From: Ktedonobacterales bacterium
Lineage (GTDB): Bacteria; Chloroflexota; Ktedonobacteria; Ktedonobacterales; JADMIN01
DNA: 32,000 bases
Direction: 5' to 3'
Assembly (NCBI GenBank): GCA_030167145.1
Contig: CP126532.1
Span: 2,970,001-3,002,000, forward strand
The notes below the pieces were generated by a model. It did not search any database. It was not told the DNA's origin and worked only from the letters and a program-made list of their open reading frames with translations. Shown here piece after piece: positions 5,968 to 10,928 of this stretch (positions are counted from its first letter, which is position 1; every line of letters begins with the position of its first letter). Made by a program: the position numbers and the translations under genes.

Positions 5968-7080
5968 TTACGTTCGCCTGCCGTGCAGCAGTTCATAGCA
6001 GAGTTGCTCGTGATAGTCCGTGACGATGTCCCAGCTATAGCGCGAACTCACATGCTCGCGGGCCACCGTGCGGCGCTCCGCCACCAGCTCCGGCGCATCC
6101 AGCAGCATCCGCAGCACGCGGCTCAGATCGCAGGCGTCGCCAGTCTTGAAGGGGAAGCCGATGGGCGCGGCGGGTTCCAGATTCTGCGGGATGTCGCTCA
6201 CCACAACGCAGTTGTGTAGCGCCATGGCTTCCAGCAACGTCAGCGCAATGCCCTCCGCCGTGCTGGGCAGCACATAGAGATAGGCGTTGCTATACAGCGT
6301 CGTCAGTTCCTCGCCATAGCGAAAGCCCAGAAAACGCACGTTTGGCCCCGCCATCGCCCGCAGCCGCTCGGCGTACTCCGGCAGGTGTTGCGCGTCCCCC
6401 GCGATCACCAGCGGCATCTCCGTATGGAGGCTATTATACGCCTCGATCAGCGTATGCACCTCTTTCTCCGGCACCAGCCTGCCAACAAAAAGTATATAGT
6501 TGCGATGCTCCAACCCAAACTCATGCAGATACTCGACAGGTTTGGGCGAAGGCAGCGTCGCGCCCGTGGAAACGAAGAAGCTATCCCAGCCATAGCGCTC
6601 GCGCAGGTCGTTGCGCAGCCAGTGCGCGATGGTCGCGGTGCGCGTCGCGCAGACCGGCGCCAGCTTCTCGCTCAGCGAAAAGAGCCGTGCGGGCAGCCCT
6701 TTCCACTTGTCCTGGCGCCACTCCTGTCCGTGCAAGATCAACGCGGTCGGTTTGCCAAACATGCGCGGGATAAACGTCAGCGGCCCATTGCCAGCGCTAT
6801 GATACAGCACCACGTCCGCGCGCCGCAGCGACACATCCATCGTCGCGAAGAACGTATGACTCAGCGTATCGGTGACACGTCCATTGAGCGTCGGCAGGCG
6901 GCGCAAGCGCACCCCACGGTAGCGCTTGCGGGCGATCTCGCGCGTGGTGTAGTAGGACCGGCAATACACCGTCACGTCGTGCCCACGCTCGGCCAAGCGC
7001 ACCGCCACCTCTTCGGTGTAGCGCTCGATGCCGCCGTAGGTTGCCGGAATGCCCTTCAATCCCAAAATCGCGATACGCAC
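5968..7080 (-). CDS. glycosyltransferase family 4 (GT-B, DUF1972-like N-terminus)
   Basis: 370 aa with a GTG start. N-terminus MRIAILGLKGIPATYGGIERYTEEVAVRLAERGHDVTVYC. C-terminal EX7E-type motif PSTAEGIALTLLEAMALHNCVVVSD. Confidence 0.85.
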   Translation of the reverse strand: MRIAILGLKGIPATYGGIERYTEEVAVRLAERGHDVTVYCRSYYTTREIARKRYRGVRLRRLPTLNGRVTDTLSHTFFATMDVSLRRADVVLYHSAGNGPLTFIPRMFGKPTALILHGQEWRQDKWKGLPARLFSLSEKLAPVCATRTATIAHWLRNDLRERYGWDSFFVSTGATLPSPKPVEYLHEFGLEHRNYILFVGRLVPEKEVHTLIEAYNSLHTEMPLVIAGDAQHLPEYAERLRAMAGPNVRFLGFRYGEELTTLYSNAYLYVLPSTAEGIALTLLEAMALHNCVVVSDIPQNLEPAAPIGFPFKTGDACDLSRVLRMLLDAPELVAERRTVAREHVSSRYSWDIVTDYHEQLCYELLHGRRT

Positions 7081-7132
7081 CTCGTCTTCATCTCCTTTTC
7101 ATCAAATCTCCGGCGCGGATACCCCGCCCTTC

Positions 7133-8517
7133 AACGTTTGGTGTGAGATGCATCGCGTTGGCGTATCATGCGGACTCACGCCGTAACCGTTTCGCATCAT
7201 CAAGCCCAACCGTACTGCCAGAATCTGGGAAACAAGCCTCTTGGCCCAAAACAATTCACACCAAACGTTTCAGGGCTGGGAAGGAAGCGTCGCTCTCCTT
7301 TCCTGTACTACTACCGCTTGACAGGCATAGAACGCCTGTGCTAGCACATGCTTATGAGCAAAACACTCACCCGTACTATCTGTATCAAACTGGACGTGGA
7401 CGGCCATGAGGCAACCTTGGCCGCGACGCAACGCGCGTTTAACGCTGCCGCGTCCTGGATTGCCCAGGTGTGCTGGTATGAGGGTATTACCAACACCAAC
7501 ACCGCGCATCACCGTGTGTACGGCGAAACCCGCCTGAACTTTGGCTTGGGTGCGCAACTGGCGGTCTGCGCGCGAGCGAAGGCAGTGGAAGCCATCAAGG
7601 CGGTGAAGGCGCGACATGAGGAGACCTGCCCGCAGTTTGGACCGCGCGGCAGTGTGCGTTATGACGCGCGCACTTACCGGTTGATGAGCCTGGATAGAGT
7701 GTCGCTCAACACCCTGGATGGGCGGGTAGTCTGCCGTTTGGTATTGGGACCGCGCCAACATGCCATGTTGATAGACCCAGCGTGGGAGATTGGTGGCGCT
7801 GATCTGGTCTGGCGGCGCGGCGTCTCCTATCTGCATGTCACCCAAAGCCGGGAAGCCCCAGAAACGCCGGAGGCGTCTGAGCCAGATGGGGGCACGCTCG
7901 GTGTTGACTTGGGCATCGTGAACCTCGCCACCGATAGCGACGGCGAGACGTTCAGCGGCGCACACGTCACCATCGTTCGCAAACGGTATCACCTGCGCCG
8001 CCAGCGATTGCAGACCGTCGGCACCAAGAACGCCAAACGTCGCCTCAGGAAGACTTCGGGCAAGGAGCGTCGCTTTCAGCGGGACGTGAATCACGGAATC
8101 AGCAAGGCGCTGGTCGCCAAAGCCGCCGTATCGTGCAAGGCAATCGCTCTTGAAGACCTCACGGGGATTCGACAGCGGGTGACGGTTCGACACGAACATC
8201 GCTACGTGCGGCATGCCTGGGCTTTCTTTCAACTCCGCCAGTTCGTCACCTACAAAGCCGCGTGGGCCGGTGTGCCGGCGCATCTGGTGAATCCCAAGAA
8301 CACCAGCCGCACCTGCTCGGCCTGTGGCCATTGTGAGAAGGCGAATCGCAAGAGCCAAGAGACGTTCCTTTGCCAGCGATGTGGCTTTACGCTGAACGCG
8401 GACTACAATGCCGCCATCAACATCAGCAGAAAAGAATGGGCCGCAGTCAACCGGCCTATGGCGTCACCCCTCGCGGGGTAGGTGCAAGCCTCCGGCTTGA
8501 GCCGTGGGGTTGTTGAC
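7133..8517 (+). mobile_element. IS200/IS605-family TnpB-only element (IS1341-like); right end inferred at 8517, left end unresolved (7133 is the outermost plausible position)
   Basis: Contains tnpB and no tnpA. The right end is inferred from the conserved-looking terminal hairpin plus ...GGGGTTGTTGAC (8506-8517), which resembles terminal sequences I recall from related elements. The left limit is set at the outer arm of a 14-bp inverted repeat (7133-7146 / 7256-7269). The octamer caagcctc occurs near both ends (7233-7240 and 8484-8491). Confidence 0.45.
7348..8481 (+). CDS. tnpB: TnpB, RNA-guided RuvC-type endonuclease (OMEGA nuclease, IS200/IS605 accessory protein)
   Basis: 377 aa (alternative ATG at 7354). 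RuvC motifs in canonical order: GVDLGIVNLATDSDGE (D), KAIALEDLTGIRQR (E), TLNADYNAAINISR (D). Zinc ribbon TCSACGHCEKANRKSQETFLCQRCGF. The N-terminal half is typical of IS1341-type OrfB. Confidence 0.9.
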   Translation: MLMSKTLTRTICIKLDVDGHEATLAATQRAFNAAASWIAQVCWYEGITNTNTAHHRVYGETRLNFGLGAQLAVCARAKAVEAIKAVKARHEETCPQFGPRGSVRYDARTYRLMSLDRVSLNTLDGRVVCRLVLGPRQHAMLIDPAWEIGGADLVWRRGVSYLHVTQSREAPETPEASEPDGGTLGVDLGIVNLATDSDGETFSGAHVTIVRKRYHLRRQRLQTVGTKNAKRRLRKTSGKERRFQRDVNHGISKALVAKAAVSCKAIALEDLTGIRQRVTVRHEHRYVRHAWAFFQLRQFVTYKAAWAGVPAHLVNPKNTSRTCSACGHCEKANRKSQETFLCQRCGFTLNADYNAAINISRKEWAAVNRPMASPLAG

Positions 8518-8533
8518 CTCCTTTGCTCTCCCG
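8360..8533 (+). ncRNA. predicted omega-RNA (reRNA) scaffold overlapping the tnpB 3' end, plus a ~16-nt guide-equivalent flank; 5' boundary nominal
   Basis: In characterised TnpB systems the guide RNA derives from the tnpB 3' end and right end, and reads into flanking DNA. Here a hairpin at 8489-8508 (cctccggc-ttga-gccgtggg, one mismatch and one G.U) lies just after the stop (8479-8481). GTTGAC follows at 8512-8517. The flank ctcctttgctctcccg (8518-8533) would be the guide. Confidence 0.35.
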
Positions 8534-8556
8534 CGCGACTGACCCCACTGGCGCGA

Positions 8557-9231
8557 TCAGCCCTCCGTGCGCGGATTGCTCAGGTGGATGTACGGACGGT
8601 AACTGTGCCCCTCAAGCGCGACCCCCGTCTTGCAGGTAACCGCGTCCAGCGTCTTGATGACCCGTCCCGGATTGCCCACCACCAGCGAATACGGCGGAAT
8701 ATCGCTCATCACCACCGCGCCCGAACCGATGACCGAGTGCTCGCCAATCGTAATCCACGGCCCCAGCGTCACATTCACCCCCACCTGCACACCGCGCTTC
8801 AGCGTCGGCCCGCGCATACACTCCAGCGAATACGCGCAGCCGGGGTGCAGGTCGTTGGCAATGGTTACCCCCGGCGCCATGAAGACCTCGTCTTCCAGCA
8901 CCGTAAACTGCGCGACATAGCAATTGGTGTGAATCTTGACGTGGCTGCCAATGCGACAGCCGTAGTCAATCGTCGTGTTGTTCCAGATCTGCACCGCATC
9001 GCCCAGATGATTCTGCTCGCGGATCACCACATTGTGGCCGGTCTGCAATTCCGCGCCGATGGTCGTGCCCGCGTAGATCACTGTGCCGCTGCGCAGCCGC
9101 GCCCGTGGACCAATCCGCAGCGTCAAATCTTCGACTTTCCGCCCCGTCAGATAGCCCAACAGCACCGACGGATCGTACTCACACCCTTCGCCCAGATCAA
9201 TCAATTCGGGGCTGACCAGAAAATCGCTCAT
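8557..9231 (-). CDS. left-handed beta-helix (hexapeptide-repeat) sugar N-acetyltransferase, WbpD/WbbJ-like
   Basis: 224 aa with multiple hexapeptide repeats (IGPRARLRSGTVIYAGTTIGAELQTGHNVVI...VGVNVTLGPWITIGEHSVIGSGAVV). Its start overlaps the upstream stop in an ATGA (9228-9231), indicating translational coupling. Confidence 0.85.
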   Translation of the reverse strand: MSDFLVSPELIDLGEGCEYDPSVLLGYLTGRKVEDLTLRIGPRARLRSGTVIYAGTTIGAELQTGHNVVIREQNHLGDAVQIWNNTTIDYGCRIGSHVKIHTNCYVAQFTVLEDEVFMAPGVTIANDLHPGCAYSLECMRGPTLKRGVQVGVNVTLGPWITIGEHSVIGSGAVVMSDIPPYSLVVGNPGRVIKTLDAVTCKTGVALEGHSYRPYIHLSNPRTEG

Positions 9232-10328
9232 ACATGCGCCTCCGCGGGTTGGTCTTCCGGCTCAAGAGCCACGCTCGCGCCGCCCATCCGCAGCGATTCG
9301 TCCATCGCTTCGAGCAGTCGCACAATCTGCAAGCCATTCTGCCCATCGCTGGGTGGCCTGCTGCCGGTACGTATCGCATCGAGAAAGCGCTGGCACTCAA
9401 TAGTAAGCGGCTCGGTCCAGTGGATATGCGGGCTGACGATATCGCCATAGCGATACGACAACTGAAACTCGCCGAAGGTAGAGGTATAGTCGGGCACATC
9501 CACGCCACGGTTGAAGATCCGCACCTTCTCCGTGGCCTCCACATCGTCGTACACCGCCATTTGCTTCTCGCCCACCACCGTGATGCGCCGCACCTTCGAA
9601 GGATGCAACCAACTCACATGCACATGCGCCAGCGCGCCATTCGGATAGCGCATCATCACGTGCGCCACATCGTGGATGTTGGGCCGCACAAACGCCTCGC
9701 CCTGCACACTCACGCTCACCGGCTCCGCGTCCAGGATGTAGTTCAGTATCGAAAGATCGTGCGGCGCGAGATCCCACAGCACATTGATGTCGGGCTGGAA
9801 CAGGCCAAGATTCACCCGAATCGCATCCACGTGGTAGACCCGCCCAAATGCCTCGTCCGCCACGATGCGCCGCAGCTCTTCGACGGCGGGATTATACAGA
9901 AAGGTATGTCCCACCATCAGCGTCCGCTCCATGCGCTCCGCCAGCGCCACCAGTTTCACCGCCTCTGCCACGCTGGCGGTGAGTGGCTTCTCCACGAAGA
10001 CATGTTTGCCGCGCTCCAGCGCCTTGCGCGCCAGCGGATAGTGCGTGCGAATCGGCGTGGCGACCACGATGGCGTCTATATCGGCATCCAGCGCCAGCTC
10101 GACATCCGCGACGACATTGATATGCGGGAAGGCTTCGCTCGCGGCCTCGCGGCGCGCTGGCGCAAGGTCTACGATGTGCGTCACCGTCGTATCGCGCAGC
10201 CGGTCAAAGTTCCGTACCAGTTGCGGACCCCAATAGCCATAGCCAATCACCGCCACCCGCACGTGCGGCTGCTCGCGACCCGCGCTCCCATCCGTTGCCG
10301 TCGCGACCCCCGTAGCTCGTGGTTCCAC
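9228..10328 (-). CDS. Gfo/Idh/MocA-family NAD-dependent oxidoreductase (WbpB-like sugar 3-dehydrogenase candidate)
   Basis: ORF 9228..10400(-). Preferred start is the GTG at 10328, preceded by GGAGGAGG with a 4-nt spacer. Rossmann motif VAVIGYGYWGPQLVRNF and the EKP motif (VFVEKPLTAS). Confidence 0.85.
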   Translation of the reverse strand: MEPRATGVATATDGSAGREQPHVRVAVIGYGYWGPQLVRNFDRLRDTTVTHIVDLAPARREAASEAFPHINVVADVELALDADIDAIVVATPIRTHYPLARKALERGKHVFVEKPLTASVAEAVKLVALAERMERTLMVGHTFLYNPAVEELRRIVADEAFGRVYHVDAIRVNLGLFQPDINVLWDLAPHDLSILNYILDAEPVSVSVQGEAFVRPNIHDVAHVMMRYPNGALAHVHVSWLHPSKVRRITVVGEKQMAVYDDVEATEKVRIFNRGVDVPDYTSTFGEFQLSYRYGDIVSPHIHWTEPLTIECQRFLDAIRTGSRPPSDGQNGLQIVRLLEAMDESLRMGGASVALEPEDQPAEAHV

Positions 10329-10928
10329 GTTTCCTCCTCCACCCGCACTGTGACCCGAAGCCCTGTAGAGCAGTGGCAGCGCCTCACAAGATCTCATCAT
10401 TTCCCACTATGACACGGATACGAAAGAATGCACAGTGTTTAGGACCAATCGCCATACCGCCAGTGCGCTTTTCAACGCATCCTAACGTCTTTTTCACACA
10501 ACTCTCCGCCGATGCGCGCTCGTAGCTGTCCTGATGTCGTTCGCCATTCCTGACACCGCTATCATATGGCTCGCCATTCCTTATTAGTGGCGTTGCAATG
10601 AAGGGACGCTGTGAGTACTACCGACGACAAGTTTCTGTTCGTGGTCCGTCAACACGTGTGAGGGGTCCATGCGCCCATCGCCGCGACAAGCAATGCGGCG
10701 GTACCATCTGGCAGGTGTATTGCGCGCTTGCAACGCTTGTGCTGTACTCAGCATTGCGAAACTAGAGGCAAACGTGCGCACGCGATACGCGGTCAGGTGC
10801 ATACATCAGGCTGCATGGGGCCGTAGAGAGGCCATTGAGAGAAGGAACGCAGTGCGTCTCGGACGGTGGCGCGGCGCGCGGCGCAGCCGTCAATGTGGTT
10901 GAGGAAGCGGTTCATGTGGGGGGAAGCC

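Follow-up and report, generated by a model that had tools for sequence, protein, structure and literature searches.

A TnpB-only IS200/IS605 element with an apparently functional nuclease gene and a left end split by a MITE in a glycan locus of a Ktedonobacterales bacterium

The DNA analysed here is a 32,000-nucleotide (nt) stretch (the window), positions 2,970,001 to 3,002,000 of contig CP126532.1 (assembly GCA_030167145.1), from a Ktedonobacterales bacterium whose genome is a single contig of 5.07 Mb. Judged by its sequence, the segment at 7103-8517 of the window is very probably a non-autonomous insertion sequence (IS) element of the IS200/IS605 family, IS1341 type, that carries an apparently functional tnpB gene and whose left end (LE) was later split by a miniature inverted-repeat transposable element (MITE), leaving it probably no longer mobilisable. 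Elements with tnpB as their only gene are among the commonest genes of prokaryotes, and this one has the textbook anatomy. The novelty lies in the MITE that occupies the LE hairpin loop; the element is otherwise canonical and of a well-understood kind. A preliminary description of the stretch had placed the element at 7133-8556, but comparison with relatives moves both limits, and position 7133 turns out to be the edge of the nested MITE. The parts of the locus are as follows.

7099-7102, plus strand: transposon-adjacent motif (TAM) TCAT, directly 5' of the LE and kept in about 20 elements
7103-7133, plus strand: 5' half of the LE, with the foot, 5' arm and loop (CCCCGCCC-TTCA) of a subterminal hairpin
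7134-7272, no strand: nested insertion of 139 nt net, made up of a 135-nt MITE (7134-7268) and a 4-bp TTCA duplication
7273-7353, plus strand: 3' half of the LE, with the 3' arm of the hairpin (GGGCTGGG…GGAAGCGTCGC) followed by promoter-like boxes
7354-8481, plus strand: tnpB, 375 amino acids (377 if started at the ATG at 7348)
8430-8517, plus strand: predicted omega-RNA 3' scaffold and right end (RE), with three hairpins spanning the stop codon and ending in …GGGGTTGTTGAC
8518-8537, plus strand: guide-equivalent flank (CTCCTTTGCTCTCCCG…), assigned by its position directly after the RE

Ends of the element

The ends of the element were placed by alignment with its relatives; to define the ends and the TAM, the preliminary description had proposed aligning other copies in the genome. 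On the left, the spacing between TCAT and the LE hairpin is the same in about 20 orthologous and paralogous elements, and the sequence further left is unrelated. The LE matches that of three other tnpB lineages of this genome and of orthologues in other Ktedonobacterales. Because conservation begins at TCAT, this motif is read as the TAM and, by analogy with the chemistry of IS200/IS605 elements, the LE would begin immediately after it, with 7103 as its first base. The layout shared by the paralogues and some 20 related elements consists of TCAT, about 10 nt, and then a hairpin of the form GGCGCGGA-CCCCnGCC-TTCA-GGCnGGGG-GGAAGCGCC, after which come a TTGACA box, a TG-extended -10 box and, 6 nt further on, the ATG of tnpB. 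In the window the corresponding hairpin is CCCCGCCC-TTCA-GGGCTGGG; its 3' arm contains a bulged T, and the two arms covary among relatives. The occupied left junction reads …TTTTCAT/CAAATCTCC.

Upstream of the orthologous genes, the promoter-like region consists of TTGACA, a spacer of 17-18 nt, a -10 hexamer (TAGAAT, TATACT or TATGTA), 6 nt and the ATG. The equivalent region of the window copy (7323-7356) has the TTGACA -35 box and a TG-extended -10 box, TAGCAC, that lacks the final T. With this spacing, the tnpB mRNA would probably be leaderless and start at the ATG at 7354.

On the right, the DNA shared with several relatives extends precisely to 8517 (…TTGAC), which sets the end of the RE. 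Among 18 orthologues the RE follows the conserved pattern ACAAGC-stem-TTNAG-stem'-N-TGAC, and the flanks diverge directly after TGAC. The RE hairpin itself, CCTCCGGC-TTGA-GCCGTGGGG, covaries among relatives; it resembles the LE hairpin and, like it, has a T bulge in the 3' arm. Such likeness between LE and RE hairpins is typical of the IS200/IS605 family. The right junction reads …GTTGAC/CTCCTTTGC, and the joint predicted for an element-free site would be …TTTTCAT/CTCCTTTGC.

The RE also has the features of a structured RNA. Consensus folding of 19 elements with RNAalifold gave three hairpins in the last ~90 nt, with 32 base pairs, 17 of which show compensatory changes, and the window copy obtained the top score (89 bits) under the covariance model built on the RE (R1). 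These hairpins are predicted to be the expected 3' scaffold of the omega-RNA, and the flank from 8518 onward would then be its 3' guide. A search of the genome for a second target of this guide, using a 16-mer with up to 3 mismatches, found no site with fewer than 2 mismatches except the element's own flank. At gathering thresholds, Rfam had no match in the whole window, and only chance-level matches occurred within 7000-8650.

A MITE in the loop of the left-end hairpin

The hairpin that is contiguous in other elements is interrupted in the window copy. Two other, highly divergent tnpB genes of this genome are preceded by sequence that matches positions 7098-7133 and 7269-7312 without a break between them, and the hairpin is uninterrupted in about 20 related elements, none of which carries a 139-nt insert in its LE. 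The inserted DNA has perfect 13-nt terminal inverted repeats (TIRs; ACGTTTGGTGTGA…TCACACCAAACGT) and is flanked by TTCA at 7130-7133 and 7269-7272, a target duplication that puts the insertion exactly in the TTCA loop. The insert is a MITE of an IS982/IS5-like DDE element and not part of the LE structure. A 14-nt inverted repeat upstream of tnpB had been considered as the LE hairpin of the IS; this was rejected because relatives join 7133 directly to 7273 and because the termini of the repeat belong to a DDE transposon family.

Within this genome no other copy of the MITE and no parent element was found, the only transposase homologue being 31% identical and without matching termini. A search of 168 other Ktedonobacterales genomes found the same termini in 13 of them. 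Matches frequently lie close to the end of a contig, a placement that suggests multi-copy repeats that break assemblies. Sibling MITEs in these genomes are ~125-133 nt long and have 4-bp duplications of TTCA, TGAA or TTAA (L198, L202, L208). A copy of ~1.1 kb with the same termini (L206) encodes a 322-amino-acid DDE_Tnp_1 protein, for which the best match was the NCBIfam IS982 model at 99 bits, below the cut-off of 130. An IS982/IS5-like DDE family with termini ACGTTTGGTGTGA and 4-bp T-N-N-A duplications has thus spawned MITEs in several Ktedonobacterales genomes (L204, L206, L198, L202, L208).

The preliminary description had called the element apparently intact. That holds for the nuclease gene and for the end that carries the RE and omega-RNA scaffold, but the LE hairpin is split by the 139-nt insertion and mobility is doubtful.

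The tnpB gene and its product

The start codon of tnpB is likely the ATG at 7354 rather than the one at 7348, since it is the start given in the public annotation and the one suggested by alignment with orthologues. From there the reading frame runs for 375 codons with no frameshift or stop. Its product matches the NCBIfam model NF040570 ('RNA-guided endonuclease TnpB family') with 181.6 bits against a cut-off of 100, as well as the Pfam families OrfB_IS605 (PF01385; 39.8, cut-off 30.5) and Cas12f1-like_TNB (PF07282; 82.4, cut-off 26.3). The three RuvC motifs and the CxxC…CxxC ribbon noticed earlier are indeed present: the catalytic triad consists of D187 (GVDLG), E269 (ALEDL) and D352 (NADYN), and the zinc ribbon of C323/C326 (CSAC, 323-326) and C342/C345 (CQRC, 342-345). 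Both sets of motifs align with solved Cas12f and TnpB chains (OsCas12f 9NZQ, TnpB 9NZP), to which the sequence matches reach E values down to 1e-29. Substitution of the D/E/D residues relative to characterised TnpB proteins had been named as an outcome that would speak against an active nuclease; the triad is unsubstituted in alignments to 9NZQ, 9NZP and other chains, and it is invariant, together with the four ribbon cysteines, in all 11 sequences compared (the window TnpB and 10 intact orthologues). We take D187, E269 and D352 to correspond to D191, E278 and D361 of ISDra2 TnpB, going by alignment offsets only.

The predicted structure leads in the same direction. An AlphaFold (AF2) model of the protein has a mean pLDDT of 81.5, and Foldseek searches with it returned AsCas12f (TMq 0.74), ISFba1 TnpB (0.58) and ISDra2 TnpB (0.57), all with probability 1.00. 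As modelled, the chain superposes over its full length on Cas12f and TnpB, which is the WED/REC plus RuvC fold.

Comparison with the 10 intact orthologues (72-85% amino acid identity) gave dN/dS values of 0.08-0.14, with dS saturated, and on this sequence evidence the tnpB family is under purifying selection. At the 172 columns where the other ten sequences agree, the window TnpB has 3 private changes, the range among the 11 sequences being 2-11. Some orthologues elsewhere have premature stops and are pseudogenes (L037, L063), so decay does occur in the family, with none visible here. As far as sequence can tell, this TnpB is an apparently functional RNA-guided nuclease.

The glycan locus and the insertion site

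As the preliminary description had proposed, the element sits in a glycan locus, between genes that share one orientation and to which it is antisense. Its immediate neighbours are the following.

5968-7080, minus strand: GT4 glycosyltransferase (Pfam Glycos_transf_1 and Glyco_transf_4), the downstream neighbour
8557-9231, minus strand: hexapeptide-repeat sugar acetyltransferase (profile matches), the upstream neighbour in the operon
9228-10400, minus strand: GFO_IDH_MocA oxidoreductase (Pfam), with UDP-GlcNAc 3-dehydrogenase as its best match

The last two genes overlap by 4 nt (ATGA, 9228-9231), which bears out the coupling suggested earlier. The gap between the acetyltransferase and GT4 genes, earlier put at ~1.47 kb, measures 1,476 nt (7081-8556) and is, in the list of open reading frames (ORFs), mostly occupied by the plus-strand tnpB. 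The LE begins 22 nt from the GTG start codon of the GT4 gene, and the RE ends 39 nt from the acetyltransferase stop codon. The GT4 is intact and full length, with 70% identity over its full length to the orthologue of a congener. Other genes around the element encode a Bac_transf priming transferase, a Wzz-like protein, a DegT aminotransferase, a MurJ-Wzy fusion, a second GT4 and an asparagine synthase, a set that confirms a locus for glycan or exopolysaccharide (EPS) synthesis. Between 6900 and 8700 there are 4 terminator-like sites, against 1.8 ± 1.5 in shuffled sequence, and so no excess.

Without 7103-8517, the acetyltransferase stop codon and the GT4 start codon would be 61 nt apart, and this spacer would contain the ribosome-binding site of the GT4 gene. 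From this spacer length it is plausible that the two genes were once contiguous and that the element inserted into an operon spacer. In the comparison with relatives that had been proposed as a check, one same-genus genome alone proved to have the locus (L033; G002:C110, 2276-2472). There, a DMFA2_C-like gene, the GT4 gene, 195 nt and the oxidoreductase gene follow one another at 70-73% amino acid identity, with no IS; the acetyltransferase gene is missing as well, so this is not a true empty site. The presence of the acetyltransferase at this locus is therefore variable. Look-ups of the exact acetyltransferase, TnpB, GT4 and oxidoreductase proteins returned their own record or nothing, with one further contig of 10-20 kb counted in the index for an identical acetyltransferase, and an exact 30-mer scan of metagenome contigs gave no match. 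Eighty metagenomic acetyltransferase loci were screened with tblastn; in the closest of them (75-84% identity) both the oxidoreductase and the GT4 are absent from the vicinity. More distant ones keep the oxidoreductase-acetyltransferase pair, with GT4-like matches in three only and more than 2 kb away.

Relatives of the element in the genome

The genome has 11 TnpB-like ORFs. The window element is present in a single copy, its nearest TnpB paralogues being 47-48% identical in amino acid sequence. A genome-wide search with the covariance model found 8 copies of this RE type: 3 with tnpB (the window element and two at 47-48% amino acid identity), 1 relic and 4 without any ORF. The preliminary description had reported a solo tnpB with no tnpA, and this is the case: three Y1 tnpA genes (PF01797) occur in the genome and all lie outside the window. 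In genome coordinates, the relatives are as follows.

4404212, minus strand: relic of a tnpB 3' end, matched by the RE covariance model
about 3610795-3611088, plus strand: ORF-less mini-element A, sharing the LE and RE type of the window element
about 2771888-2772181, plus strand: ORF-less mini-element B, sharing the LE and RE type of the window element
about 4281140-4281452, minus strand: ORF-less mini-element matching the paralogues' RE, with TCAC rather than TCAT
about 2803375-2803716, plus strand: ORF-less mini-element matching the paralogues' RE, with TCAC rather than TCAT
2434135-2435600, plus strand: autonomous IS605-type element with tnpA (2434135-2434488) and tnpB, LE hairpin core like that of the tnpB-only elements
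1922880-1924352, minus strand: autonomous IS605-type element with tnpA and tnpB, LE hairpin core like that of the tnpB-only elements
3971971-3972300: third tnpA, a weaker match

The four mini-elements (294-342 nt) each have a TAM, an LE hairpin, a promoter-like box and omega-RNA-type RE hairpins, with their own flank in the guide position; none of their guides has a second-site target with fewer than 2 mismatches in 16 nt. Mini-elements A and B match the LE and RE of the window element at 77-81%. The LE hairpin core of the two autonomous elements, CCCCGTCCC-TTTA-GGGCTGGGG, is closely similar to the LE found in tnpB-only elements and mini-elements, and by this likeness the two are candidate mobilisers in trans.

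Proposed history and alternative explanations

In the history favoured here, the element would have inserted 3' of TCAT, antisense to the acetyltransferase and GT4 genes and in the short stretch that separated them. Transcription across the 3' end of tnpB and the RE would yield an omega-RNA, with the adjoining 16-20 nt of flank serving as its guide. By analogy with characterised TnpB elements, the nuclease would cut the vacated TCAT-plus-guide site after excision, and recombination would restore the element. After its arrival, the 135-nt MITE of an IS982/IS5-like DDE transposon would have inserted into the LE hairpin at its TTCA loop. Any Y1 TnpA would then have to bind a split hairpin, so that the element is probably not mobilisable, with tnpB and the omega-RNA end apparently left intact. 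It is this splitting of the hairpin by the MITE that would cripple the element as a transposon.

Several observations weigh against parts of this history. No empty site was found in the genomes or metagenome contigs searched. A consensus scan calls no promoter ahead of tnpB, whose -10 box TAGCAC is poorer than those of the orthologues. The folded DNA suggests that the inverted repeats of the MITE may hold the LE arms together, which makes loss of TnpA recognition likely rather than proven. Lastly, the insertion point is embedded within a tandem repeat of 11 nt (7088-7102, 8518-8524), reading TCATCTCCTTT and then TCAT, the IS and CTCCTTT. Put differently, CTCCTTT occurs as a direct repeat of 7 nt (7092-7098 and 8518-8524) on either side of TCAT plus the IS. 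A target duplication is not expected from the chemistry of IS200/IS605 elements, and inspection by eye of the flanks of five orthologues (L035, L038, L040, L045, L047) showed none. The repeat here may be due to chance or related to ribosome binding. On the minus strand, the CTCCTTT repeats read as two AAAGGAG motifs resembling ribosome-binding sites.

It is conceivable that the element is still mobile, with the TIRs of the MITE zipping up to lengthen the LE hairpin, which a TnpA supplied in trans would bind and excise. The predicted DNA fold of 7103-7320, in which the LE arms stack on the TIR stem of the MITE (z = -3.5), is consistent with this, as are the two tnpA genes in the genome whose elements have a similar LE hairpin core. 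We nevertheless consider continued mobility unlikely. The related LEs, about 20 in number, all keep a loop of 4-6 nt, and hairpin-binding Y1 transposases, as known from IS608, read the geometry of the loop and upper stem. Moreover, the element is single-copy with only distant paralogues, and the TAM context of the autonomous elements differs. A second possibility is that the copy is a silent relic, its tnpB unexpressed and disabling mutations not yet accrued, so that its only effect would be disrupted transcription of the operon. The degenerate -10 hexamer and uncalled promoter, the disrupted LE and the pseudogenes already present among the orthologues would fit a relic, but the uninterrupted ORF, a number of private changes among the lowest of the 11 sequences, the intact RE and omega-RNA hairpins with their top covariance-model score, and retention of the TG-extended -10 box all argue against it, and this too appears improbable.

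A quite different idea is that TnpB has been domesticated for a host function. As one example, it might regulate or insulate the GT4 gene in an RNA-guided manner and so influence glycan structure. The closeness of the element to the GT4 start (22 nt) and its antisense orientation relative to the operon might suggest as much, as might an intact ORF in an element that is probably immobile. Against these stand the intact RuvC triad, the canonical transposon ends and TAM, a guide that matches only its own flank, and an insertion shared with neither the congener nor any relative, which together make domestication very improbable indeed. A combined scenario can also be framed, in which the copy was immobilised by the MITE and kept as a homing nuclease acting in trans for mini-elements A and B, for which it is the sole TnpB in the genome that matches their omega-RNA/RE type, while modulating the GT4 gene from its antisense site 22 nt away; we regard this as a decidedly long shot. 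The reading that best accommodates the evidence remains a canonical tnpB-only element with an apparently functional nuclease and a MITE-disrupted LE.

Comparison with known systems

The element resembles others of the IS1341 type, such as the non-autonomous ISGst tnpB elements of Geobacillus stearothermophilus (Meers et al., 10.1101/2023.03.14.532601), and ISDra2 TnpB. It has a single tnpB gene and, at both LE and RE, subterminal hairpins formed by the top strand, and it lacks terminal inverted repeats. As in those elements, a 4-nt TAM abuts the LE, the omega-RNA scaffold overlaps the 3' end of tnpB with a guide in the right flank, and TnpA would have to come from elsewhere. It differs from ISDra2 in its TAM, which is TCAT here and TTGAT in ISDra2, and in the MITE nested in the LE loop. 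Most tnpB elements likewise lack tnpA and rely on a transposase in trans (Meers et al., bioRxiv 10.1101/2023.03.14.532601).

In both sequence and fold, the TnpB of the window is closer to Cas12f (AsCas12f, OsCas12f) than to ISDra2 TnpB. Its best matches by sequence (E 1e-29) and by predicted fold (TMq 0.72-0.74) are Cas12f chains (AsCas12f 8DZJ/8J12, OsCas12f 9NZQ), with which it shares the RuvC and zinc-ribbon motifs. Because of this closeness, the protein may represent a branch of TnpB close to an origin of Cas12f. It was not assigned as a type V-F effector: a repeat search of 6900-8800 found no CRISPR array, the flanking genes (GT4, acetyltransferase) are not cas genes, and the NCBIfam Cas12f2 model gives 139 bits against a cut-off of 450. 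Unlike a Cas12f gene, this tnpB lies inside transposon ends with a TAM and without a flanking array or cas genes.

TldR regulators are domesticated, nuclease-dead TnpB proteins, and a designation as TldR was discarded here in view of the intact triad and the presence of LE, RE and TAM. The known TldR regulators stem from a study of TnpB domestication (10.1101/2023.11.30.569447).

The four mini-elements are similar to palindrome-associated transposable elements (PATEs), which are ORF-less IS200/IS605 derivatives that often encode omega-RNAs; they sit outside this locus, and only A and B share its LE and RE type. Carriers of omega-RNA of this PATE-like kind, dependent on TnpB supplied in trans, have already been described (Meers et al., 10.1101/2023.03.14.532601).

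The nested insert, with its 13-nt perfect TIRs and 4-bp target duplication, is like IS982/IS5-like DDE elements. It departs from IS982 in that the transposase of its sibling falls below the model cut-off and in that the genome holds no autonomous copy with these termini.

Implications

The locus offers a fully delimited TnpB system from the Ktedonobacterales, with its TAM (TCAT), LE, covarying omega-RNA scaffold and guide, and its compact, Cas12f-like protein of 375 amino acids is a candidate nuclease. For the glycan locus itself, the insertion is a possible polar lesion between the acetyltransferase and the glycosyltransferase of an EPS-type gene set. The MITE in the LE would also be a natural case of one transposon disabling another through the loop of the hairpin that TnpA binds, and the LE with and without the MITE makes a pair that would be informative on what Y1 transposases need.

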